Shown: positions 2,009-56,834, numbered from the stretch's first letter. The stretch is DNA of 57,310 nt from a bacterium (GCA_030698495.1 JAUYKA010000018.1:1-57310), one strand, 5' to 3'. The notes: generated by a model from the letters alone, not told the origin. Numbers and translations are program-made.

Positions 2009-3235
2009 ATGCCTGAACCAGACATTACGCCGCGCGTCGTTCACCGGCCCAACCTTCACTATCGCCAATGGCTCGGCCTTATTCTCATGCTACTGGCCGG
2101 TGTTTATATCGGCCGCTATCTTTTACCCGGTGTGCCGCCGGCTTCTTTGCCCACGGTAACGATCGACCAAAACGGCGAGCGGCAAATAGCTTTTCCTACT
2201 TTTTGGGAGGCATGGGATCGCCTTCATGAGAAATTCATCGGCGATTTATCCGATGATACACTAATGTATGGCGCTGTCTCTGGCATGATCTCGGCCGCGG
2301 GCGACCCCTACACCGTTTTTGCCGACCCTGATGCCACCAAGCAGTTTAACGAAACCCTCGGCGGCAGTTTTTCCGGAATCGGTGTAGAAATGGGCATGCG
2401 CAACGGCGCTGTGACTGTTATCGCTCCGCTCGACGGCTCACCCGCCCAGACCGCCGGCATCCGTGAAGGCGATATTATCGTTGCTGTTGACGACACACCC
2501 TTAACGCAAGACACCACCTTGGATGAAGTAGTGCAAAAAATACGCGGTGCTCGCAGTACAAAAGTAAAACTCACCGTGCTGCACAAAGGCGACCAGGAAA
2601 CAGCGGTCATTACCATAACGCGCGACACTATCCACATCGACAGCGTTAAACTTGATATAACCGACAACATCGCGCGCATAACCGTAACCAGTTTCAACGA
2701 AGACACCGCCTCGCAATTCTTAACCGCGGCGCGGCAAATTACCCGCCAGTCAGTCTCCGGCATTATTCTTGATTTGCGCAATAATCCCGGCGGCTTCCTG
2801 CAATCGGCCGTTGATATTGCCTCCCGCTTTATCCCCGAGGGCCAGCTGATTGTTTCGGAGCGTGGCACCGATACCACGGAATATAAAGCCGAAGGCAACG
2901 ATATCTTAAACGGCATCCCGCTGGTTGTGTTGGTTAATGAAGGCTCCGCTTCCTCCAGTGAAATCTTATCAGGCGCTTTGCGCGATAACCTCCAGGCCTC
3001 AATAATCGGCACCACCACCTTCGGGAAGGGTTCCGTTCAGGAACTTATCAAACTAAAAGATGGCTCCAGCCTGCGCGTCACCGTGGCCAAATGGTTTACT
3101 CCCAGCGATCACAATATCAACGAATCCGGCATTGAACCGGACATTCAGGTTGAACAAAATTACGACACGACCGAAGACGAACCCTTGCTGCGCGCCACCG
3201 AAGAAATAACTAAACTGATTAATAACGCGCAATAA
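2009..3235 (+). CDS. S41 carboxyl-terminal processing protease (CtpA-like) with PDZ domain
   Basis: N-terminal TM; GIG..PA..AGI..GD PDZ; LDLRNNPGG, SASSSEI and TFGKGSVQ. Confidence 0.95.
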   Translation: MPEPDITPRVVHRPNLHYRQWLGLILMLLAGVYIGRYLLPGVPPASLPTVTIDQNGERQIAFPTFWEAWDRLHEKFIGDLSDDTLMYGAVSGMISAAGDPYTVFADPDATKQFNETLGGSFSGIGVEMGMRNGAVTVIAPLDGSPAQTAGIREGDIIVAVDDTPLTQDTTLDEVVQKIRGARSTKVKLTVLHKGDQETAVITITRDTIHIDSVKLDITDNIARITVTSFNEDTASQFLTAARQITRQSVSGIILDLRNNPGGFLQSAVDIASRFIPEGQLIVSERGTDTTEYKAEGNDILNGIPLVVLVNEGSASSSEILSGALRDNLQASIIGTTTFGKGSVQELIKLKDGSSLRVTVAKWFTPSDHNINESGIEPDIQVEQNYDTTEDEPLLRATEEITKLINNAQ

Positions 3236-3239
3236 CCAA

Positions 3240-3548
3240 ATGACCTCGCCAACTGACCAGCCCCGCGACAATCAAATCGGGGAACTGTGCCTATTGGTTT
3301 CCGGCCGTGTTCAGGGCGTATTTTACCGCGCCACCGTGCGTCGATGGGCGCGCGAACTAAAACTAAACGGCTATGCCAAAAATCTACCCGACGGCCGCGT
3401 AGAAATCGTAGCGCAGGGGAGTAAAGGCCACCTAGCCACTATACTGCGTCAGTGCTACAATCAAGTTAGGGCGGCTCGTGTGGAGCACATCGATGTCACC
3501 TGGAGGGACAAGCCGAGCGAACTTTATAAAGATTTTATAATTCTTTAG
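3240..3548 (+). CDS. acyP: Acylphosphatase
   Basis: VSGRVQGVFYR and GYAKNLPDGRVE. Confidence 0.93.
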   Translation: MTSPTDQPRDNQIGELCLLVSGRVQGVFYRATVRRWARELKLNGYAKNLPDGRVEIVAQGSKGHLATILRQCYNQVRAARVEHIDVTWRDKPSELYKDFIIL

Positions 3549-3567
3549 ATAAGGAGTTAAATTTCTT

Positions 3568-4059
3568 ATGTCAAAGAAGGTACAAGTTATTTTGTTGGAG
3601 AATATTGCTTCCTTAGGCCGCGCCGGCGATATAGTCGTCGTATCCGAAGGACACGCTCGCAATTTTTTATTCCCGCAAAGCAAAGCCGCTTTGGCGGATA
3701 GTAAAACTCAAAAACAACAAACCCAAAGGCTTGCCAAAAAACAAGCGGAATCTTCGGCTGAAACTAAAGCCTGGCAAGAACAAGCCGAACTGTTATCCCG
3801 CGCCGAGCTTTCTTTGGTGGCGGCCATAAAAGACGGCGATGACATATTCGGCACTATTACCCCGGCGGTTATCGCCAAGGAGTTAACCAAACAGGCCGGG
3901 ATAAGCGTGAAAGCCTCGCAAATCACGACCGAAGAACCGATTAAAAAAATAGGCGGTTACAATATTTCAGTTAACCTTTCACCGGACGTTGAGGCCAACC
4001 TGCGTCTAAATGTGACGGCAAAACCAGGAACCGGTCCGAGTAAAGACGAAGAAGACTAA
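3568..4059 (+). CDS. rplI: 50S ribosomal protein L9
   Basis: VILLENIASLGRAGDIVVVSEGHARNFLFP; IFGTIT; PIKKIG. Confidence 0.95.
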   Translation: MSKKVQVILLENIASLGRAGDIVVVSEGHARNFLFPQSKAALADSKTQKQQTQRLAKKQAESSAETKAWQEQAELLSRAELSLVAAIKDGDDIFGTITPAVIAKELTKQAGISVKASQITTEEPIKKIGGYNISVNLSPDVEANLRLNVTAKPGTGPSKDEED

Positions 4060-4074
4060 GTAGCTGCCAAACAT

Positions 4075-5832
4075 ATGTCCCCCCAAAAACATCGCCGTCC
4101 CGTTCACCGGCGCCGGCGCGTTAAATACATTTTTGTTACCGGCGGAGTTCTCTCCGGCTTAGGCAAAGGCATAACCGCCGCTTCCATCGGTAATCTCTTA
4201 AAAAGCCGCGGGTTTTCCGTTAATATCCAAAAGTTTGACCAATATATTAATGTCGATGCCGGCACGCTCAACCCGGCCGAACACGGCGAAGTTTTTGTTA
4301 CCGACGACGGCGCCGAATGCGATTTAGATCTGGGTCATTATGAGAGGTTCTTAAACGAAAACCTGAAAAGCACCGCCTCCGTTATGACAGGGGAGATCTA
4401 TCAAGCGGTAATCAGCCGCGAAAGACGCGGCGACTACCTGGGCAAAACCGTGCAGGTTATTCCCCAAGTTACCGACGAAGTAAAAAAACGCGCGCGCCGG
4501 GCCGCGTATTCCAACGGCTATGATTTTCATATCGTCGAAATCGGCGGCACGGTAGGGGATAACGAAGGGTTTCATTTTCTGGAAGCCGCCCGCCAAATGA
4601 GTCTCGATGAAGGCGCGGATAACGTCTTATACGTTCATGTCGTTTTTCTGCCGTATTTGAAAGCTTCCGATGAGGTCAAAACCAAGCCGGCACAAAACAG
4701 TGTCAGAGAACTGCGCAGTATCGGCATTCAGCCGGACGTTCTAATCGCCCGAACCGATTATCCCGTGCGCGACAACATTGTTGATAAACTTTCTCTCTAC
4801 ACCAACGTTGCGCCCGAGGCCATTATGCCGCTTGTCACCGTGCCCAGCGTTTACGAAGTCCCTCTACTAATGGAAGCGAAACAACTCGACCATGTTATTT
4901 TAAACAAACTGGGACTTAAAGCCCGAAAGAAAGACAACAGTCGCTGGCGCAAATTCGTGCAAAACATTAAAAAAGACAAAGCCAACGTTACCATTGCCAT
5001 GGTTGGCAAATACACCACCATGCTGGATACTTATGCCAGCTTAGTTGAAGCGCTCAAAGCCGCCGCCTGGCACAATAATCGCGACCTAACCCTGCGTTGG
5101 GTGGATGCCGAAGAACTGGAAAAAAGCGACCCGGCTAATTCTCTGGATAATATTGCCGGCATTGTCGTCCCTGGCGGTTTCGGTATCCGCGGCACTGAAG
5201 GTAAAATAAAAGCTATCCAATACGCTCGGGAAAATAAAATTCCGTATCTGGGTATTTGCCTGGGCATGCAGTTGGCTACCATAGAATTTGCCCGGAATGT
5301 GCTTGGAGTATCCCAGGCAACCAGTGAAGAATTTATTGATGAAGGAGATGTTTCGGACAAACTGCGCCAAGCTTGCGTCATTCATATAATGGACGATCAA
5401 AAATTTGTGAAAGAAAAAGGCGGCACCATGCGCCTGGGCGGCTGGGATTGTTGGCTGAGGGAAGGCACTAAAACATATACCGCATATAGCTCTATATTCA
5501 AGAAAGATTCACCATATTCCAACCTCCTCAGCCAATCCGCCGTAGCCTCCGCCAAAGGCGGAGCGAAGGAGGATCAATCCAATAAAAAGATAATCCGTGA
5601 ACGCCACCGCCATCGCTATGAATTCAACAATGACTTTCGTCAGCAACTAACCAACGCCGGCTTGCGTGTTGCCGGAACTACTCCCGACAACAAACTGGTC
5701 GAAATAATTGAAGTCGCCGATCACCCCTGGTTTGTCGGTGTTCAATTTCATCCTGAATTTACTTCCCGTCCCAACCTCGGCCATCCACTGTTCAACGCAT
5801 TTTTAGCCGCTGCCATCAAGCAATCAACTTAA
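4075..5832 (+). CDS. pyrG: CTP synthase, with a short in-frame palindromic insertion
   Basis: KYIFVTGGVLSGLGKG, DLDLGHYERF, GICLGMQ, ERHRHRYE and QFHPEF. Confidence 0.98.
   Translation: MSPQKHRRPVHRRRRVKYIFVTGGVLSGLGKGITAASIGNLLKSRGFSVNIQKFDQYINVDAGTLNPAEHGEVFVTDDGAECDLDLGHYERFLNENLKSTASVMTGEIYQAVISRERRGDYLGKTVQVIPQVTDEVKKRARRAAYSNGYDFHIVEIGGTVGDNEGFHFLEAARQMSLDEGADNVLYVHVVFLPYLKASDEVKTKPAQNSVRELRSIGIQPDVLIARTDYPVRDNIVDKLSLYTNVAPEAIMPLVTVPSVYEVPLLMEAKQLDHVILNKLGLKARKKDNSRWRKFVQNIKKDKANVTIAMVGKYTTMLDTYASLVEALKAAAWHNNRDLTLRWVDAEELEKSDPANSLDNIAGIVVPGGFGIRGTEGKIKAIQYARENKIPYLGICLGMQLATIEFARNVLGVSQATSEEFIDEGDVSDKLRQACVIHIMDDQKFVKEKGGTMRLGGWDCWLREGTKTYTAYSSIFKKDSPYSNLLSQSAVASAKGGAKEDQSNKKIIRERHRHRYEFNNDFRQQLTNAGLRVAGTTPDNKLVEIIEVADHPWFVGVQFHPEFTSRPNLGHPLFNAFLAAAIKQST
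5533..5580. repeat. Palindromic element inserted in frame in pyrG, bounded by CAATCC direct repeats
   Basis: CAATCC-gccgtagc-ctccgccaaaggcgga-gcgaaggaggat-CAATCC, 42-nt offset between repeats; similar to 39510-39535 and 52386-52412. Confidence 0.7.
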
Positions 5833-9150: not shown

Positions 9151-10133
9151 GAGCTTGATGAAAAACTAACCTAAAGCACAAAAAGTGCTGTTTTTGGTAT
9201 GATAGATGTGCTAAACAAACTAACACCAAAACCAACACTTTTATGTACTCTCAACATATTCCTACCTACGCTAGGTTTCAATGGATAAACAGTCGCAGAG
9301 TAATTTGTCTTTTAGAACAAGCGCTACCCTATGCCGGCACAGGGCGGCGGGGTCATAGCAAATCTTTGTTGTTCCGCTGGCTGATGTACAAACAAGTGAT
9401 GGGTTGCAGTTACCGCGATCTAGAGAGTATGAGCGGTGTGGATTTCACTACCTTTATCAAGTTTCGTGAGAAAATTAAACAGCAATGTTGGCTGGATAAT
9501 GTTTTTACTATCGTTGCCAAATCAGTGGTTAAAACAAGAAAATCACTCACGCTCATTACCGATTCTTCCTTTGTTGAACAGTATGCCAGACATAAAGAAA
9601 CAGGTGCTGAATATTCTGGCCACAAAGAGAAAACCGGCTTTAAACTGCATCAAATCATTGATTTCCGTACTCGTTTGCCGATGGCACAAGTTACTACAGG
9701 TGGCGCGAGAGCGGATGTGATACTAGCCCAACAGTTGGTGCAGAAATTACCTAAACGTTGGCCAGTGAAATCCTTTCTGGCCGACAAGGGTTACGATAGT
9801 AATGCCTTTGCGCAACAACTGCATCACAAATGGTTCGGCATCAAAGTTGGTATACCGGTCCGACGAACTGGTCAGGCTGCGAGAAAATCTAAGCGACAGG
9901 AGACGCCACTGAACAGACAGGCCAAAGAAGCTAATCGATGCCTTGATCTAAAGCTCTACAACAAACGCACCGAAGTTGAACGCTACTTTAGCCGTAAGAA
10001 ATATGTCTTCAATCTGGGCTGTGAACGTACATGTGGCATCGATAACTTTGATACTAATTGCTTAATGACATCTGTAATGGAACAGCTGGAGTACCTGGCA
10101 CGGCCGGGGTTAGGCTAGTTTTTCATCAAGCTC
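9151..10133 (+). mobile_element. Complete 983-bp insertion sequence (IS5/IS4-like DDE)
   Basis: 24-bp terminal IRs with 1 mismatch (9151-9174 and 10110-10133); TGGGGG target duplication (9145-9150 and 10134-10139). Confidence 0.92.
9243..10118 (+). CDS. DDE transposase
   Basis: ITDSS, GFKLH, FLADKGYDS and LYNKRTEVERYFSRKK motifs; stop lies inside the right IR. Confidence 0.93.
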   Translation: MYSQHIPTYARFQWINSRRVICLLEQALPYAGTGRRGHSKSLLFRWLMYKQVMGCSYRDLESMSGVDFTTFIKFREKIKQQCWLDNVFTIVAKSVVKTRKSLTLITDSSFVEQYARHKETGAEYSGHKEKTGFKLHQIIDFRTRLPMAQVTTGGARADVILAQQLVQKLPKRWPVKSFLADKGYDSNAFAQQLHHKWFGIKVGIPVRRTGQAARKSKRQETPLNRQAKEANRCLDLKLYNKRTEVERYFSRKKYVFNLGCERTCGIDNFDTNCLMTSVMEQLEYLARPGLG

Positions 10134-10915
10134 TGGGGGAGAGAAGTACTCTTTTATCCGACCCAAGCATTACTATTAGAAAAATAGATCTATCGAGATA
10201 TACATATCCCCACAAAACAGGGGAGAGAACTGTGCCTAAACCAGATAGAAGAATAAAAAAATGAGATACAAATAATTGCGTAGGGAAAAGCAAATTGAGA
10301 AGTTGACATGAATATGAAAAATGTTCGTGTCCTGTGGATAACATAAGGGGGAACATGCTAAGTTCGCAAAAGGTACATTGTGCGACGCATATATATTCCT
10401 ATGCGTTATTACTCGCTGCGCTCCTTGATGCCCTCGCTCTTGTCCCGTCCCTGCCTGTCTTATGTCTACCCCCTACTACCGCTCCCCTAAATTTCCCGGA
10501 TTTTTACACTCGCTTCTTTTATAGTGTATATCAGTAAAAAAGTTTACCTTCTCTATCAGAAAAATTTTACGATCATGATTATAATTATGACGCATTTAAA
10601 TCGCTTGTAAGAGATCTTCAGTATTCAGATACCCTTAACTTCATTCAATTAGCACCAGCGTAATTATAGAGCACGCTTATATGCATACCCACCGCTTCTC
10701 TTCCTGGGCATTCATACAAAACAAACTTTAATAATAAGTATTAGCTCTCGCGTTTTTATTTTTTACACTACCTCTTAGCACGTTTGCACGCATTGTTTTT
10801 TGTCTTTTTTGCGTATTTAACTAAAATGTATCCAGATAAAACATCAGGCCAGACCCAAGAAGCGTCGCACAATATAAAGTAGTAAGCAGACAAGAATTAT
10901 ACTAAGCTACAATAT

Positions 10916-11332
10916 ATGGCCAATACTCCCGAAGCGCCTCGTCAGAAATTTCTATTCAACACCGGCGACGGCGACGATAATGAACCAACTCCTATCCCCT
11001 CCTCGGAACCAACTTTAAAGGCTAAGGAACAATTATTATTGGATTTTTTAAATTTATTGCGCCATCAAGCGAAACGGTCGGAATGGGAAAACCTGCCCGA
11101 TCAAAAAAACAGAAACGCCGACTTGGCCAGGGCAGATCTCCAAGATAATAATAGCCGACCGACCAAAAAAAATATCAACGTCAACCACCATCCTTCTTCC
11201 AGTCTTTATGCTTCCCTGCTTAGAGAAGATCCCGCCACTATGTCCGAAGAAAGATATCGTGAACTTCAAGAAGAATTTAACTTCTTTCAGGATTTATTTA
11301 ACCACCAAAGAAAAAAGCCCCGGCCGCGCTAG
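10916..11332 (+). CDS. Hypothetical protein
   Basis: 138-aa hydrophilic ORF filling the gap. Confidence 0.6.
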   Translation: MANTPEAPRQKFLFNTGDGDDNEPTPIPSSEPTLKAKEQLLLDFLNLLRHQAKRSEWENLPDQKNRNADLARADLQDNNSRPTKKNINVNHHPSSSLYASLLREDPATMSEERYRELQEEFNFFQDLFNHQRKKPRPR

Positions 11333-11363
11333 CTCTCCCCTGCTCTGTCCCTTATATCAACAC

Positions 11364-11582
11364 TCAAACTAAATTAGCCGCTCGCCCCAACGCCCACAAC
11401 GCGCCCAAAATTACTACCGCCAGTAAAATCAGCAGAATAAACCACTTCAGGGTTTTAAAAATGAAGCGGGACATTAGCGCCGTTACTACCGTCGCGATAA
11501 TTCCAATCGCATACCATTTATATGGTCCCTCAATATCGGTGACAAAGCTAATCGCTTGTTTCAGTAATTCTTGTTGATCCAT
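11364..11582 (-). CDS. Small two-TM membrane protein
   Basis: Two hydrophobic segments; co-oriented with the upstream operon. Confidence 0.7.
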   Translation of the reverse strand: MDQQELLKQAISFVTDIEGPYKWYAIGIIATVVTALMSRFIFKTLKWFILLILLAVVILGALWALGRAANLV

Positions 11583-11591
11583 AAGCTTAAC

Positions 11592-11720
11592 TTATTCATG
11601 CCTGAATATTTCATGCCACAACAAACGCAGAATATAAAAGATCGCGTAAAAAGGACCCCAAAGCGGTACGAGAGACGTAACCACTCTATCAAATACCTTA
11701 TCCGGATCAAAGCGTGCCAT
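11592..11720 (-). CDS. Small hydrophobic protein (42 aa), absent from the ORF track
   Basis: MARFDPDKVFDRVVTSLVPLWGPFYAIFYILRLLWHEIFRHE; start overlaps the upstream stop (TAATG). Confidence 0.55.
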   Translation of the reverse strand: MARFDPDKVFDRVVTSLVPLWGPFYAIFYILRLLWHEIFRHE

Positions 11721-38822: not shown

Positions 38823-39299
38823 TTAATTCAACGCCCAAATGGCGTAATTTAGATAACTGGCAAAACTAACCCAAAGCAAATAAGGCAACAACAAATACGC
38901 CGCCGGTTTGGAAATCCTATAAAACAACACAATCGTCCATACAATCGCCAACCACATCGCCGCGATTTCCAGCAGTGCCAATCCGGGATTTTGCATGCCA
39001 AAGAAAATAATCGACCAGACAGAATTCAACACCAACTGAACCGCAAACACCCCTACTGCTTTTTTCACATCGCTTCTCTGCCAGCCTCTCTGCCACACCA
39101 ACCAAACTGCGATACCCATCAGCAAATACAACGTCGTCCATACCGGACCAAAAATCCAATTAGGCGGCGCCAGCACCGGCCTGATCAAAGTGGCATACCA
39201 ATTAGGTATCGCCGAGGTGGTAAAAAAAGCCCCCAAAATCCCCGCGCCTTCGCAAATAATTACCGCAACAACCAACCCAATCCATTTATTCACTAACAT
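38823..39299 (-). CDS. tspO: TspO/MBR tryptophan-rich sensory protein
   Basis: WY..L..P...PPNWIFGPVWTTLYLLMG; LN..WS.IFF; PYLLWVSFA. Confidence 0.95.
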   Translation of the reverse strand: MLVNKWIGLVVAVIICEGAGILGAFFTTSAIPNWYATLIRPVLAPPNWIFGPVWTTLYLLMGIAVWLVWQRGWQRSDVKKAVGVFAVQLVLNSVWSIIFFGMQNPGLALLEIAAMWLAIVWTIVLFYRISKPAAYLLLPYLLWVSFASYLNYAIWALN

Positions 39300-52269: not shown

Positions 52270-52433
52270 TATAGCAGCAATTATCCTCCCGCCACATCCC
52301 CCGTATTTCAAACACCAATGACCAATTAACGACGTCGCTGTCAGTGATCATTAAGTAATTGAAGAATTGATTAAAAATTACTGTGTCGGCCATAGCCTTG
52401 TGCGACGGCTGAAAAATTGATAATTGAAAATTC

Positions 52434-53012
52434 CTACCATAAATCAGATTTTACCGTTCTACCCAATCTCTCATGCTTCCCTAAAGCTAACAGAGATTTA
52501 AGACTATAGGGTGCCCACTCCGCCAACACAAACAACACTCCCGTGTACGCCAAATTTCCCAGCAAGTTATACCGGAAAAAAGGAATCGCGTAATAATAAG
52601 ACAAAATCAAACCGTCACCCGTCAGCGGATAATAACCGCTAAACCGCCACACCGCTAAATTGGTCGCCAGGTAAAAAATTATCGAGCTGGCCAAAGACGC
52701 CCCTATAATCGGCAAAGCCCGACGTCGCTCGCGTAACCATGTGCCCAGCCAAACCGTCAACGCGAAAGACCCGTACACCGCCGCCATTGTCGGCCACTCA
52801 TAAAAACCAAGCAATAAATCAGAAGCAAACATAGCAATAAGCGGTACCAGCAATGCCCACGGGCGCTTAAGCAAAGCACCGGATAACAAAGCCACAGCCG
52901 CTATCGGCGCCACGTTAGGCACGTGCGGCACCAACCTTAAAATCATTGAACCGCCGACTAGAATCAGTATTAACCATGTCTCAACGGATAATAGCTTCTT
53001 GTTTATTGTCAT
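52434..53012 (-). CDS. Putative ECF-type S-component, probably cobalamin-related
   Basis: RLVPHVPNVAPIAAVAL, SDLLLG, FYLATN..VW, Y..AIPF; about 6 TM; last gene of the riboswitch operon. Confidence 0.75.
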   Translation of the reverse strand: MTINKKLLSVETWLILILVGGSMILRLVPHVPNVAPIAAVALLSGALLKRPWALLVPLIAMFASDLLLGFYEWPTMAAVYGSFALTVWLGTWLRERRRALPIIGASLASSIIFYLATNLAVWRFSGYYPLTGDGLILSYYYAIPFFRYNLLGNLAYTGVLFVLAEWAPYSLKSLLALGKHERLGRTVKSDLW

Positions 53013-54967
53013 AATAATTTTGTTAATAATCGAGTAATACTAACACCGATACCTATGTTAGCCAAGCTGAATAGACCCACCGCGAACTGCTTATCTTTGG
53101 CATTTAAAGGCACAAATCCCGCCGGAGTACTTTCATCAATAACTTGCTCCGCCCTTTCTTGTTTTTGCGTTGCCTTGACTGGTAACTCCTTATCTTGACC
53201 TGATATTACGGCCGATTGAACAGATTCGTCGTTACTGACAACTCCCATTACCATTCCCGTCGGTGACGGACTGATACTTGACTGACCAATACTGGTAATA
53301 TTAATAGACTGCCCCGGCACGTACGTTAGCGCCTCGCTTCCTATCACCGCCGTCGCTATCTTCATTATCGGCCATGGACTTTGCTCAAGCGCCGTTGCCG
53401 CGTAAGCCGTCATTAGTGCCGAGCTATCATTCTGGCCGCGCCAGCCGAACGCTCCCGATTCATTTTGATAGCCGAGTAAAGCCGTCCAAGGATCACCCGC
53501 GGCCACACGCCAGGCGGCCGGATCTTCGCCCAACGATATAATCGCCTGAATAGCCCACGAGGTTGTCGCGCTGTTTCCCCCAAAGCCGCCCGAGTCATCT
53601 TGATGATTTTTTAGCCAACCGCGCGCCTTGTCTCTTGCGTTATGTATATCTATCCCCCCGCCATCCTTTTGGTAAGCCCCTAAAGCCTGCACCGCCGCCG
53701 CAGTCAAATCAATGTTATTAGTCCAGTCTCCACTCGCGCCTTGCGTTGCGATAAGATGCTCTATCGTTCGGTTCAAATTGGAGGAACTAGCGTTTTCTCC
53801 CGCCGCCAGCCAAGCCAGTACGCCAAAAATATCATCGTTGATCAATCCTTCTTCTCCGACTTGTCCGTCATGATAATACCCGTTAAGACGCTCAATCAAA
53901 TCATCGCCGTTAAAATTTCGCGGGTTGGCTCCGGAGGCTCTTACTGCCAAAATCAACCTCTCCACATCCGTGGCGCTATTTAAAGGAGTTTGGCCTAACG
54001 CCGCCAGCAGTGAATTACCCCCCTTGGTTATTTGCGCGCTTGATTGTTCATTCGCGCCCAATGCTACTGCCGCCCAGGCGCTTGTTATATAACCATCAAT
54101 CAACCCGTCAATATTTTGCTGTTGTTCCAAGTAGCGCAAGGCTTTGTCGGCCGCGTCTTGTCTGCTGTCTTCCGTCATCGACAGCACCGCCGCCGTCGGT
54201 GTTACTGTTGGCGTTGCCGTGGGTGTCATCGTCGGTGTCGACGCAATCAACGGCGTCGGAGTTACTATTGCAGCCACCAGCTGCAAAGGAGCGCTTCTGA
54301 TCAAACCGTCCCCTTCGGCTTGAACCAACAACGAATTATCTACCGCCAAACTTACCGTCACTCTGCCGTCATCCGGTACCGTTAGAATTTTCTCTCCCGC
54401 TCGCAATGTCTCTCCGCTAGCCGGCTCCCAATGCCCGTGCCATACCCAATTATCGTCCGTTTCCCCAATTCTTTTTTCAACCACAACAACAGTTTGCTCA
54501 TCTCCCGCTTCTGCCTCTGATGCCGTTATTCTTAGCGGCGCGTCGCCAAAAGCCGCCAACGCCAACAATAAATCGTCCCCATCTTTAATCTGATAATCAG
54601 CCACACCAACGTCCGCCGCGTCGTAATTGACCCAAAAACTCCAATATTTGGAATAATCATCCGGCGCCTTCTCACCGTCAATATCGGTGATAAACAAACC
54701 AAATCCGAAATCGGATACATTAAAACCAAACTGCTTTTCGTCATTAGCCACCGCCAAGGCGCAAGCCGCCACTTTTTCTAATTGATGTTCGTTGCCGGTG
54801 TTATCAACAATCACGCAATCATTGACGGCGACATCATGGTTGTAAATAGTATTCTTCTCTCCCTCAACACGAAGATGAACCGTTATTGTATTATCCGCGT
54901 TACTGACGCCAACCAACCCGCCTAAAGCCAGCCCCAGTACAAGCAACCAATAAAAAATATTTTTCAT
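53009..54967 (-). CDS. Secreted, C-terminally anchored protein: DUF4430-like beta domain plus prenyltransferase-like alpha/alpha barrel
   Basis: VRVEG, GLFITDIDG..YWSFWVN...VG QW-like repeats (LEQQQNIDG, LIATQ..SG.W, LKNHQDDSGGF, YQNESGAF); Thr/Pro linker. Confidence 0.75.
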   Translation of the reverse strand: MKNIFYWLLVLGLALGGLVGVSNADNTITVHLRVEGEKNTIYNHDVAVNDCVIVDNTGNEHQLEKVAACALAVANDEKQFGFNVSDFGFGLFITDIDGEKAPDDYSKYWSFWVNYDAADVGVADYQIKDGDDLLLALAAFGDAPLRITASEAEAGDEQTVVVVEKRIGETDDNWVWHGHWEPASGETLRAGEKILTVPDDGRVTVSLAVDNSLLVQAEGDGLIRSAPLQLVAAIVTPTPLIASTPTMTPTATPTVTPTAAVLSMTEDSRQDAADKALRYLEQQQNIDGLIDGYITSAWAAVALGANEQSSAQITKGGNSLLAALGQTPLNSATDVERLILAVRASGANPRNFNGDDLIERLNGYYHDGQVGEEGLINDDIFGVLAWLAAGENASSSNLNRTIEHLIATQGASGDWTNNIDLTAAAVQALGAYQKDGGGIDIHNARDKARGWLKNHQDDSGGFGGNSATTSWAIQAIISLGEDPAAWRVAAGDPWTALLGYQNESGAFGWRGQNDSSALMTAYAATALEQSPWPIMKIATAVIGSEALTYVPGQSINITSIGQSSISPSPTGMVMGVVSNDESVQSAVISGQDKELPVKATQKQERAEQVIDESTPAGFVPLNAKDKQFAVGLFSLANIGIGVSITRLLTKLL

Positions 54968-54968
54968 A

Positions 54969-55535
54969 TTACTTAAGCTCCTTCTCGGCTTCGTATTTCC
55001 ACGTTACTCTGTCGCCCGGCGCCGCCATCGTTGTGGAAGCACCCGTCGGAGTCAAGCGGTCATTAACATACAACTGCCAATAAAGATTTTTCGCCGCGTC
55101 ATTGTCCGTGCCGTTTATGCTTTCCACAAACACACCCAGCGTACCCCCGTAATCTTTCGTTCTTAACTGTAAACCTTGGCTTTTCGCCTTTTCCAGTATT
55201 TGCGCCACATTTTCATTTTGACCAGCCGCAACTTCATAGACATCCGTGCTGCTAGGACCCGTAATTTCTAGGCTTACCGTTTGAGTATTCGCACTAACAT
55301 CTTGCTGACTGTTTTGCTCGCCCCTTACCGGCGTTAACGCCTTGTTAGCACTGTTTTCTACCGCTATCTCTCCCGACTCATCAGTGATTGTCTTTACCGC
55401 ATCTTCTTTTATATTAGGCAACCGGAATAAAACCGCCGCCAGCACCAACGCTAACGGTAATAACAACCCCAACGCGATCAACTCCGGCTTAATATTTTTT
55501 CTCCCCACCGCTTTCTCTGTTTTATCATCCTGCAT
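54969..55535 (-). CDS. Membrane-anchored DUF4430 (transcobalamin C-domain-like) protein
   Basis: TM plus GVFVESING....YWQLYVN....GAS....GDRVTW.Y. Confidence 0.8.
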   Translation of the reverse strand: MQDDKTEKAVGRKNIKPELIALGLLLPLALVLAAVLFRLPNIKEDAVKTITDESGEIAVENSANKALTPVRGEQNSQQDVSANTQTVSLEITGPSSTDVYEVAAGQNENVAQILEKAKSQGLQLRTKDYGGTLGVFVESINGTDNDAAKNLYWQLYVNDRLTPTGASTTMAAPGDRVTWKYEAEKELK

Positions 55536-55654
55536 ATTTTTTATCTTTAAGGGTAATTCCCTCCCCCGCCGCCATAAAAAAACTCTGCCTAAGCAGAGAA
55601 AAAATTGGACTAACCAATAAATTACCTTCCTCCTGCTCGGGATCTAACATCACA

Positions 55655-55750
55655 AAGACGAAGGGTCGGACTTTCTTAAATCTCTGATAAAGAAATTTAA
55701 GATTACCGTTGCGGCACAGTGCGGGATTTACACCCGCTTCACTTGTCTTG
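55655..55750 (-). promoter_or_regulatory. Cobalamin riboswitch (short form)
   Basis: GAAGCGGGTGTAAATCCCGC-ACTGTGCCGCAACGGTAA-[hairpin]-AAGTCCGA; outer AGACAAG/CTTCGTCT pairing; upstream of DUF4430/ECF genes. Confidence 0.82.
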
Positions 55751-55906
55751 CTTGCCGCGAAGCACTCGCGGCTTTTTTGATAAATGACAACCTGTATCAA
55801 CACTATACGGTCGGCCATCAAGTCCAGTCAACGACAAACCCCGACACTTTTCCCCAGAATCTATCTTTTTTTAAACTTTGTTTCTTCTTATGATATACAT
55901 ATAGCA

Positions 55907-56043
55907 TACCTCCGACCGGGAACTCTCCGGAAACGCCAATCATCCCGAGGCCAGGAGGTAGCCGCCAGGTAATATTGAATGGTTTCTTTGTGCCCCTGAC
56001 CACTCAATATGCAGCCCACTCGTCGTGGAATCTGCACTGGCGG
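55907..56043. ncRNA. Unidentified structured RNA candidate (two multi-stem domains)
   Basis: TACCTCC/GGAGGTA and CCGCCAG/CTGGCGG closing stems with inner 11-bp and 9-bp helices. Confidence 0.4.
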
Positions 56044-56075
56044 TTTTTTCTTTTCGCCAAAATAATAGGTATGTA

Positions 56076-56834
56076 TCACTTTATCTCGTAAGTTACCGTA
56101 ACTGTGGCCGTAACATCCTGACTGCCGGCCGGTACCTCCACGCCTCCGCCCACGGCATCGTTTTCTAAAGCGGCCCTGGCATAAATAGGCGGCTGATCAG
56201 GTACTTGAGTACTGGCGGAAAAAGTTTTTACCTGACCCAAATGTACCCCTAGAGCTTTAGCCAACTCGTCCGCTTTGCTCTTAGCATTTTTTATCGCTTC
56301 TTCTTGTGCCTGTAAACGCAAGTCTTCAGGATCATCGATAGTAAAACTTATACCGCCAACCTGATTAGCGCCCTCGCCAGTGGCTTTGGTTACTATGTCT
56401 CCTATTCTATCCAAATCTCTGATTTTCACCTGCACCGATTCACTGGCTTCATACCCGCGCAACTGCTGCCGACCATCGCTATAATCGTAAACCGGATTAA
56501 TAGACAAATTAGTCGCTTTTATATCTTCTTCCTTTACGCCGTCTTTCTTCACCGAGGCCACTACCGCGTTAAACTTTGTTTCCAATATTGATATTGCCGC
56601 CGAGGCTGTTGTTTGCGCACCCGTTTGCACTCCTAAATTGATTTGCGCTATGTCCGGTACCGTTGTTACTTCCCCCGTGCCCTCAACTGTGATTTCCCTA
56701 TTAGCCGCAGCTTCTTGCTGAATGCGCTGCGGCTGGGAACCTACATACTGACCCCCCAAATAAAACAAACCGCCGATAATAACCGCCGCAAAAATTACAT
56801 TTTTTCTATTATTCAAATTATTTTCTTCTAACAT
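56076..56834 (-). CDS. SIMPL (DUF541/BP26) domain protein
   Basis: ITVEGTGEV..VPDIA.INLGV, I.P.YDY, GAN and A..NAK.KA..LA..LGV.LG. Confidence 0.92.
   Translation of the reverse strand: MLEENNLNNRKNVIFAAVIIGGLFYLGGQYVGSQPQRIQQEAAANREITVEGTGEVTTVPDIAQINLGVQTGAQTTASAAISILETKFNAVVASVKKDGVKEEDIKATNLSINPVYDYSDGRQQLRGYEASESVQVKIRDLDRIGDIVTKATGEGANQVGGISFTIDDPEDLRLQAQEEAIKNAKSKADELAKALGVHLGQVKTFSASTQVPDQPPIYARAALENDAVGGGVEVPAGSQDVTATVTVTYEIK

Follow-up and report, generated by a model that had tools for sequence, protein, structure and literature searches.

A cobalamin-riboswitch operon of transcobalamin-like surface proteins and a DUF6580 membrane protein in a CPR-type genome

We describe a three-gene operon, preceded by a cobalamin-riboswitch-like leader, in a 57,310-nt stretch of bacterial DNA (GCA_030698495.1, JAUYKA010000018.1:1-57310; this whole stretch is called the window below). 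Judged from sequence comparison and structure prediction, the operon is likely a system for capture and import of corrinoids (the vitamin B12 family) in a bacterium of the candidate phyla radiation (CPR)/Patescibacteria type, repressed by B12 through a transcription-terminating riboswitch. Scavenging of B12 from the surroundings is its most likely role, because a B12-sensing RNA, transcobalamin domains and a vitamin-transporter-like membrane protein occur together. An initial annotation of the window had proposed the same core reading, a B12-riboswitch operon whose transcobalamin-like surface proteins and S-component-like transporter scavenge corrinoids, and it is supported by the riboswitch, the protein domains, the predicted transporter fold, the linkage to RTPR and PduO genes and the gene fusions reported here. 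Three open reading frames (ORFs) make up the operon:

54969-55535, minus strand, g1, 188 aa
53009-54967, minus strand, g2, 652 aa
52434-53012, minus strand, g3, 192 aa

The ORF coordinates agree with the tight coupling noted earlier, with a gap of 1 nt between g1 and g2 and an overlap of 4 nt between g2 and g3. The window resembles a CPR/Patescibacteria genome (split transketolase, small genes, few pathways), and the closest relatives of g2 are found in metagenome-assembled genomes (MAGs) of Candidatus Andersenbacteria and Parcubacteria (43-46% identity).

The leader RNA

The 450 nt upstream of homologous operons share a series of sequence blocks: GAAG-N-GGUG-NNAAUCC, CUGUGCCGCAACGGU, a variable hairpin, AAGUCCGA and, about 25-60 nt further on, YCCGAGCAGGR. 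Twenty leaders were aligned with MAFFT, which is blind to structure, and the alignment was scored against a secondary structure drawn from the Rfam alignment and by eye. Pairing was found in 80.0% of 520 cells, compared with 41.0-47.5% when the partners were slid. Changes on both sides occurred in 20 of the 26 pairs (107 double-change cells versus 28-48 when slid), and none of 500 shuffles reached the score of the alignment. This covariation backs the core helices of the leader, namely the outer helix, P4, P5 and the base of P6.

A covariance model (R1) built from the same alignment was run on both strands of the window and of 79 related loci (991 kb). The 57-kb window contained one match:

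55626-55752, minus strand, cobalamin-riboswitch-like leader comprising the aptamer core and a P13-like hairpin (R1, 86.9 bits)

Matches were also obtained in 53 of the 79 related loci (E<=0.01). All lay on the strand of the g2 homologue, at a median distance of 78 nt from the next ORF of the family, with 48 of the 53 within 700 nt. When 58 matches were aligned by fitting to the model, an alignment that itself leans towards the structure, 84.3% of cells were paired versus 39-50% when slid.

Rfam's thresholds for cobalamin families were passed at the R1 positions in 10 of 23 loci scanned as two sets (1/11 and 9/12). The single locus in the first set was L010 (Cobalamin); those in the second were L015, L024, L031 and L047 (AdoCbl), L012, L030 and L035 (Cobalamin), and L021 and L022 (AdoCbl-II). 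The thresholds went unmet in L017, L019 and L041 and in seven close relatives (L001-L004, L006, L007 and L009), so that these seven were found by R1 and missed by Rfam. A single covariance model nevertheless spans the window RNA and the Rfam-passing RNAs of L015, L021, L022, L024, L030 and L035.

With Rfam clan CL00101 (AdoCbl RF01482, Cobalamin RF00174 and AdoCbl-II RF01689) the leader has in common the core helices of the four-way junction, the GGUG..AAUCC hairpin, a B12-box-like AGUCCG and a 3' hairpin, and relatives aligned with it pass the thresholds of all three families. We accept the riboswitch as real because of this conservation, the covariation and the relatives above threshold; by these comparisons the window leader, though divergent, does belong to the cobalamin riboswitch clan. 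The earlier call of a cobalamin riboswitch upstream of g1 therefore holds by covariation, homology and threshold-passing relatives, although the window copy by itself reaches no Rfam gathering score.

Immediately 5' of the aptamer, at 55754-55772, lies a 7-bp GC-rich hairpin (GCCGCGA..TCGCGGC). Read on the plus strand, where a T-run accompanies it, the hairpin looks terminator-like, and it does not mark the end of any gene on that strand. Possible roles are a stem in the 5' leader or bidirectional termination serving the region upstream.

The expression platform

Four elements surround or follow the aptamer:

55802-55831, minus strand, promoter-like site TTGACT-18 nt-TATAGT about 50 nt upstream of the aptamer (the best consensus match in 52300-56200, 10/12; consensus match only)
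55631-55642, minus strand, P13-like hairpin with a 3-bp stem and the invariant loop CGAGCA (stem covariation)
55588-55641, minus strand, predicted antiterminator pairing the P13 strand with the 5' arm of the terminator (thermodynamic prediction only)
55576-55598, minus strand, intrinsic terminator CTCTGC-TTAG-GCAGAG followed by T7 (hairpin 55598-55583), terminator-like and located 3' of the aptamer, before the start codon of g1

The P13-like stem alternates between C-G and U-A and is paired in 92.5% of cells of the MAFFT alignment and in 89.6% for the 58 sequences. The minimum free energy fold of 55571-55650 is the antiterminator (-17.0 kcal/mol versus -8.6 for the terminator hairpin alone), and the terminator also forms in the fold of the complete leader. 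An antiterminator-type fold was the minimum in 10 of 13 homologous leaders, the terminator being the minimum in L003, L006 and L022. Loop L5 (UGC) is complementary to the GCA of the P13 hairpin loop, and these three pairs are formed in 97.3% of 150 cells. Double changes affect two of the three pairs (U-A to G-C and G-C to U-A), in L010 and L012 only; as these loci are related, the changes probably represent one event. A regulatory loop-loop contact between L5 and L13 is known from solved cobalamin riboswitch structures.

The hairpin, antiterminator and terminator together point to an OFF switch responding to B12. At high cellular levels, B12 would bind the aptamer and the L5 loop would lock the P13 hairpin. 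The locked P13 strand would no longer be available to the terminator's 5' arm, allowing the terminator to form and the operon to be turned off.

Surface proteins encoded by g1 and g2

The two upstream genes encode proteins with the following parts:

55425-55481, minus strand, g1 anchor, a hydrophobic 19-mer (residues 19-37)
about 54981-55289, minus strand, g1 beta domain (DUF4430/SLBB; Pfam DUF4430, E 3e-13, residues 126-182)
54554-54886, minus strand, g2 DUF4430 beta domain (residues 28-138; AlphaFold2 model and Pfam)
54275-54541, minus strand, g2 beta-sandwich (residues 143-231; AlphaFold2 model), followed by a Pro/Thr-rich linker
53387-54172, minus strand, g2 alpha/alpha toroid (residues 266-527; AlphaFold2 model, pLDDT mostly >90)
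residues 543-611, minus strand, g2 disordered stretch (AlphaFold2 model)
53015-53101, minus strand, g2 C-terminal helix (residues 623-651), conserved and followed by basic residues (Arg, Lys)

The hydrophobic 19-mer is the only hydrophobic segment in g1, and the family alignment consists of an anchor, a variable linker and a conserved C-terminal DUF4430 domain. By these features g1 is a membrane-anchored extracytoplasmic DUF4430/SLBB protein, in keeping with its earlier description as a transmembrane-anchored DUF4430-like protein. Its DUF4430 domain is paralogous to the N-terminal beta domain of g2, to which it aligns with 25% identity (E 9e-4).

A signal-like hydrophobic stretch opens g2. Pfam identified DUF4430 (E 1e-8, residues 75-136) and, below cut-off, SQHop_cyclase_C (19.7 bits) and Prenyltrans (18.6 bits), both of which are alpha/alpha toroid families. 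The AlphaFold2 model, made from 30 sequences, had a predicted local distance difference test score (pLDDT) of 83.1. In Foldseek comparisons the g2 beta domain matched the transcobalamin beta domain 5no0 with a template modelling score (TM) of 0.76 by target over 116 columns. Among 30 members of the g2 family, Pfam matches were to DUF4430 in 24, SQHop_cyclase_C in 23 and Cobalamin_bind (PF01122) in 6; the relative in L001 scored 25.5 bits for Cobalamin_bind against a cut-off of 25. NCBIfam had no family for g1 and only matches far below cut-off for g2 (SCO2321 family, 40 bits versus 300, and cyclases).

The initial annotation had read g2 as a secreted protein with a DUF4430-like domain followed by a helical barrel. 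Both domains are borne out by Pfam, AlphaFold2 and Foldseek, but the protein is more likely surface-anchored than freely secreted, because its conserved C-terminal helix is followed by basic residues. This helix may serve as a simple membrane anchor or as a signal for sorting. The C-terminal pattern in the family is roughly P-x-G-F..P...D..FA..LFSLAN.GIGV...RL..KL, and the mean hydropathy of the helix (about 1.4, summed by hand) is under the cut of 1.6 used for hydrophobic segments.

Within the toroid, N-D-D-(I/V)-F-G at residues 377-382 (53822-53839) is invariant or nearly so in 30 relatives and may line a ligand cavity. The SQHop_cyclase_C alignment (residues 390-466) begins just past it. 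In L006 the g2 homologue is split into three ORFs (2668-3300, 3213-3635 and 3701-4417), through either gene decay or MAG assembly errors.

The membrane protein g3

Pfam assigned g3 to DUF6580 (E 5e-44), a domain carried by all 82 of the 82 relatives found, some of which are named 'DUF6580 family putative transport protein' in their sources; NCBIfam had no family for it. The predicted structure (pLDDT 91.5) is a bundle with six to seven helices. Its top Foldseek match was BtuM with cyanocobalamin (8c7p; TM 0.57 by query, 0.61 by target), followed by ThiT, FolT, BioY and PanT. S-components or energy-coupling factor (ECF) complexes accounted for 12 of the 15 best-ranked rows (ranks 1-17), with probabilities of 0.93-1.00, TM of 0.45-0.59 by query and E-values of 0.04-0.6. 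A profile of 39 g3 relatives matched one chain in the PDB, 6fnp_A (182 residues; 23 bits, E 4.3e-4), over almost the full length, with PNxxP and S(D/N)xxLGF stretches in common. The entry 6FNP is that of ECF-CbrT, according to the excerpted text of its report (PMC5997447), and from its length we infer that chain A is CbrT.

On the basis of the model, g3 is a DUF6580 protein with a predicted ECF S-component fold, which agrees with its earlier description as a roughly six-helix S-component-like protein. The anticipated structural resemblance to known B12 proteins likewise held for g3, whose best match is BtuM, and for the g2 beta domain, which matches 5no0, but not for g2 as a whole, where terpene cyclases outrank transcobalamin.

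Membership of g3 in the BtuM family was considered and rejected. The protein is without any cysteine, hence without the cysteine ligation that defines BtuM. The alignment of 39 family sequences has no conserved cysteine, and neither the single sequence nor the family profile gave a match to BtuM at E<=10.

DUF6580 is a large family (6,912 representative clusters at E<=0.001), and named relatives also come from Pseudomonadota and Bacteroidota. We found no publication on its function in the literature searched. That literature also yielded nothing on CbrT-type S-components with a riboswitch or on cobalamin riboswitches in Patescibacteria, and only off-topic papers, judged by listing and abstract, on cobalamin and ribonucleotide reductase in the CPR.

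The earlier remark that no ECF ATPase or T gene is adjacent was confirmed. CbiQ/EcfT was present in none of the 58 window proteins scanned, and the window's three ATP-binding cassette (ABC) ATPases (one FtsE-like, one ABC-2/DrrA-like and one without assignment) all fell short of the ECF-ATPase cut-offs.

Related loci, gene orders and fusions

The 79 related loci were retrieved through the g2 alignment; they were thus chosen by g2 rather than by DUF6580, and the counts cover g2-bearing loci. DUF6580 adjoins the g2 homologue in 19 of them. A riboswitch is present in 15 of these 19, and two of the other four are cut by contig ends. The order g1-g2-g3 occurs in eight loci (L001-L004, L006 and L008-L010), g2 followed by one or two genes, g1 and g3 in six, and g2-g3 in four; in L013 g3 is fused to the toroid protein. 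The three-gene set recurs 3' of such riboswitches in many CPR genomes. Many CPR families in other loci have the toroid first and DUF4430 second, the transcobalamin order. In L010 and L012 the toroid protein lacks DUF4430, which is encoded upstream as a protein of its own.

Pfam was applied to 135 proteins encoded 3' of the riboswitch (44 loci) and to 26 proteins from eight more loci (161 proteins, 52 loci), revealing linkage to B12-using genes. A class II ribonucleotide reductase lies 3' of g3 in L002, L003, L004 and L006; NCBIfam, applied to one of these, gave 313.6 bits to RTPR against a cut-off of 340. Further on in L002-L004 is a PduO-type adenosyltransferase (165.6 bits versus a cut-off of 108). 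In L004 the genes overlap:

L004:8860-12271, RTPR-type reductase and PduO genes 3' of the DUF6580 gene, the genes overlapping by 4 nt

A B12 OFF switch there would act in the opposite sense to the usual logic, which is repression of a B12-independent isozyme. Gaps of 67-120 nt in L002, L003 and L006 could hold a second promoter. Elsewhere, the proteins encoded downstream include a ribonucleotide reductase large chain in L026 and a BtuF-type periplasmic binding protein in L033. Among the 135 and 26 neighbouring proteins there was neither CbiQ/EcfT (0/161) nor a gene for corrin-ring or lower-ligand assembly. Pfam on 13 proteins of the Solirubrobacterales loci (L059-L079) gave toroid matches and fumarase neighbours only.

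Fusions join the same components. The L013 ORF (6287-9560, open at the contig end) combines DUF6580, the toroid, PG_binding and an Ig-like domain, and P0221 (337 aa) combines DUF6580 with DUF4430. Atlas clusters, treated as no more than leads, link the toroid to DUF6580 or to a riboflavin-type S-component, and a TonB-dependent receptor to DUF6580. These fusions came from the exhaustive search and the loci; the word-indexed collection contained no longer, fused relatives of g3, which is weak evidence.

A few neighbours and fusions stand apart. P0255 (685 aa) joins DUF6580 to a Diphthami_syn_2 domain of the ATP-pyrophosphatase type, and in L033 (8146-10339) a Diphthami_syn_2 gene comes after DUF6580 and the BtuF-like binding protein. 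In two CPR loci (L047:9028-9963 and L048:8234-9157) an ABC-2/DrrA-type ATPase gene lies directly 3' of a riboswitch-controlled toroid protein, and no DUF6580 gene was seen there. These ATPases score 201-212 bits to TIGR01188 (cut-off 312) and are possibly an alternative membrane partner of the capture protein.

Comparison with known systems

Published systems are compared here as described in excerpted text of the cited papers. In Lactobacillus delbrueckii, cbrT sits in an nrdJ-cbrS-cbrT-pduO cluster (Santos et al. 2018, PMC5997447), in which cbrS is, by our inference, a DUF4430 gene; in L. rhamnosus a DUF4430 protein adjoins rtpR. The companions RTPR/NrdJ and PduO in close CPR relatives of the window's operon recall this cluster. 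Like ECF-CbrT, the operon includes a small membrane protein of the S-component type, and 6FNP chain A is the only PDB match of the g3 profile. Unlike CbrT, g3 belongs to Pfam DUF6580 and is remote in sequence (E 4e-4 by profile, 0.18 by single sequence), has no ECF module in view nearby, and is accompanied by a riboswitch and a large toroid protein.

BtuM of Thiobacillus denitrificans is a solitary B12 S-component in which Cys80 ligates the cobalt and is essential for binding (Rempel et al. 2018, PMC6072759). In its fold, for which BtuM is the best structural match, its size of about 20 kDa and its candidacy for module-free transport, g3 is similar; it differs in being without cysteine and without a sequence match to BtuM. 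The genetic setting differs too, as BtuM genes occur with btuB in Gram-negatives and not with surface transcobalamin-like proteins.

The closest precedent for the surface proteins is a survey of bacterial surface SLBB proteins, in which the toroid stands on either side of the beta domain, operons encode a second paralogous SLBB protein, and a role in B12 scavenging was predicted (Burroughs et al. 2007, PMC1796856). Such operons were described mainly from Gram-positive bacteria and some archaea (PMC1796856). As in those proteins, g2 has a signal peptide and an SLBB (DUF4430)-toroid fusion, and g1 is the second paralogous SLBB protein. We also list as a common trait that, in the excerpted text, the organisms with the 2007 system lacked B12 synthesis. 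The window's operon differs in its DUF6580 partner, in having no CbiO/CbiQ gene near its three genes and in its CPR hosts, and g2 would be anchored through a C-terminal helix instead of an LPXTG motif.

With animal transcobalamin, intrinsic factor and haptocorrin (PF01122), g2 shares the combination of alpha/alpha toroid and beta domain. In g2, however, the beta domain (28-138) precedes the toroid (266-527), with the beta-sandwich and Pro/Thr linker between them, and the protein is membrane-anchored, without a PF01122 match and with a model whose predicted TM-score (pTM), 0.52, leaves the clamp geometry unpredicted. The initial annotation had drawn attention to the reversed order of beta then alpha. 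The order is real in g2 but not new, because the 2007 survey already listed both orders (PMC1796856, in the excerpted text).

Proposed mechanism and alternative explanations

Outside the cell, g2 would clasp a corrinoid with its toroid on one side and, on the other, a beta domain supplied by g2 itself or by g1. Membrane-tethered g1 would help to hand the corrinoid to g3, which would move it through the membrane by S-component toppling. By analogy with BtuM, it is somewhat more probable that g3 works without a dedicated ECF module than that it depends on one. We favour this independence because CbiQ/EcfT was found in none of the 161 proteins of related loci and none of the 58 window proteins, and because DUF6580 also occurs in Pseudomonadota and Bacteroidota. 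A broader proposal, tentative and somewhat short of probable, is that DUF6580 constitutes a third, unrecognised family of B12-specific S-component-like transporters, which would import corrinoids without an ECF module and without the BtuM cysteine. Members would be fed directly by transcobalamin-like surface proteins, sometimes fused to them, and where an outer membrane is present they would continue the route begun by a TonB-dependent receptor.

Several observations weigh against the uptake system as proposed. At Rfam's curated thresholds the window gives four matches, all tRNA, and none to a cobalamin family. The best Rfam match of the leader, to AdoCbl RF01482 at 55655-55749 (minus strand), scores 36.2 bits versus a gathering score of 50 (E 7e-5 with E-value reporting); unlike clan members it covers model positions 20-101 of 149 and, taken alone, is weak evidence. 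The pTM of 0.52 for g2 means that the relative placement of its domains is not predicted. Its top Foldseek matches in the PDB are not transcobalamin but terpene cyclases (8pak, E 2.7e-7), including squalene-hopene cyclase and drimenyl diphosphate synthase. Alpha2-macroglobulin/complement proteins come next and then transcobalamin (2v3n, 2bb6 and 4zrp), with TM of only 0.46-0.50 by target; g2 itself has no match to PF01122 at E<=0.01. For g3, Foldseek E-values are weak (best 0.04, none <=0.001), and its single sequence reaches 6fnp_A only at E 0.18. The 58 proteins scanned in the 57-kb window include no ribonucleotide reductase or other B12-dependent enzyme, no cobalamin adenosyltransferase and no energising module. 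In L004 the ribonucleotide reductase gene overlaps g3 by 4 nt, so that an OFF switch would, unexpectedly, turn down a B12-using enzyme as well. From excerpted text of published work, CbrT without its ECF module failed to support B12-dependent growth in E. coli (PMC5997447), CbiO/CbiQ genes were generally found in operons of the 2007 survey (PMC1796856), and an ECF-like system with the same architecture from L. sakei (lsa1836-1840) was proposed to import heme (10.1101/864751).

The transport step is where a competing explanation is strongest. The capture system could be the same and g3 an ordinary group-II S-component, without solo transport, that docks like CbrT on an EcfA/A'/T module encoded elsewhere. 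We regard this as a serious possibility, though on balance doubtful. Group-II S-components are by definition encoded apart from their module, the sole solved sequence relative of g3 lies in the ECF-CbrT entry, and both the failure of solitary CbrT to complement the E. coli strain (PMC5997447) and the CbiO/CbiQ genes of the 2007 operons (PMC1796856) fit such dependence, at least as excerpted. Set against it, CbiQ/EcfT is seen neither among the 58 window proteins scanned nor among the 161 neighbouring proteins, and the window's ABC ATPases score below every ECF-ATPase cut-off. To our knowledge, ECF modules are rare in Pseudomonadota and Bacteroidota. The occurrence of DUF6580 in these two phyla, together with the Atlas cluster containing a TonB receptor, corresponds to the setting in which BtuM works module-free (PMC6072759, excerpted text).

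Whether corrinoids are the cargo bears on a further alternative, in which the operon imports another tetrapyrrole (heme), a B12 precursor (cobinamide) or cobalt instead of complete cobamides, and the riboswitch only ties expression to B12 status. The L. sakei operon offers a precedent: transcobalamin-like alpha and beta proteins are encoded there with an S-component-type transporter and ECF-like parts, and heme import was proposed (10.1101/864751). In that system alpha and beta reside on distinct polypeptides, ECF ATPases are encoded in the operon, and the excerpted text mentions no riboswitch. ECF-CbrT also transports cobinamide (PMC5997447, as excerpted), and a reviewer of the 2007 paper, in the excerpted text, cautioned that the clade may bind other ligands (PMC1796856). 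We consider this alternative unlikely: cobalamin riboswitches lie upstream of the family in 53 of the 79 loci, genes joined to the operon in L002-L006 use or adenosylate cobalamin itself, and no corrin-ring or lower-ligand assembly genes were seen among the 135 and 26 neighbouring proteins. Even less probable, to the point of being very unlikely, is that g2 functions outside the cytoplasm as an enzyme with the terpene-cyclase/prenyltransferase fold and modifies a lipid or glycan of the envelope, in which case the DUF4430 domains would be mere adaptors and the toroid would not hold B12. The Foldseek ranking of squalene-hopene cyclase and drimenyl diphosphate synthase, the Pfam matches to cyclase and prenyltransferase families and the (nearly) invariant N-D-D-(I/V)-F-G all point that way, but every cyclase match is under the Pfam and NCBIfam cut-offs. 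The DXDD motif marks class II cyclases, and the conserved stretch in g2 begins with Asn rather than the Asp of that motif. Moreover, the toroid is always joined to or beside transcobalamin-type beta domains behind a B12 riboswitch, and 6 of 30 g2 relatives match Cobalamin_bind.

Implications

CPR bacteria are unable to make most cofactors. We found no description in the literature searched of a CPR route to B12, and the operon offers a concrete, testable one. In relatives it is wired to a B12-dependent ribonucleotide reductase, and DNA synthesis would rely on this enzyme. The analysis also suggests a likely function for DUF6580, a family of thousands of clusters across phyla; if the broader proposal is true, DUF6580 would give CPR bacteria and many others a route for vitamin B12 that is free of ATP-binding cassettes. 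Novel aspects are the DUF6580 protein in the role of membrane partner, the lack of neighbouring ECF genes, the distribution across CPR genomes, the gene fusions and a riboswitch set that, in the closest relatives, Rfam thresholds largely miss. Such a well-conserved set matters for the annotation of B12 regulons in metagenomes, and the natural fusions and split forms suit tests of the transcobalamin-like clamp proposed in 2007.

Locus surroundings

Pfam identified a SIMPL-family gene (56076-56834) upstream of the operon, and a Na/Ca-exchanger gene and xseA downstream. A TspO/MBR family protein is encoded at 38823-39299 (minus strand, E 6e-53). This family is annotated as tetrapyrrole-binding, and its presence is worth noting beside the apparent import of a tetrapyrrole-type cofactor. 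A DDE_Tnp_1 transposase gene (9243-10118, plus strand, E 2e-19), followed by a region with little coding signal (10119-11719), indicates a mobile element in this small genome. GC skew was below zero in all 2-kb windows examined across 1-56000 (-0.05 to -0.28; C>G on the plus strand), which suggests that the entire window belongs to a single replichore arm. In the second half of the window, most genes are on the minus strand.

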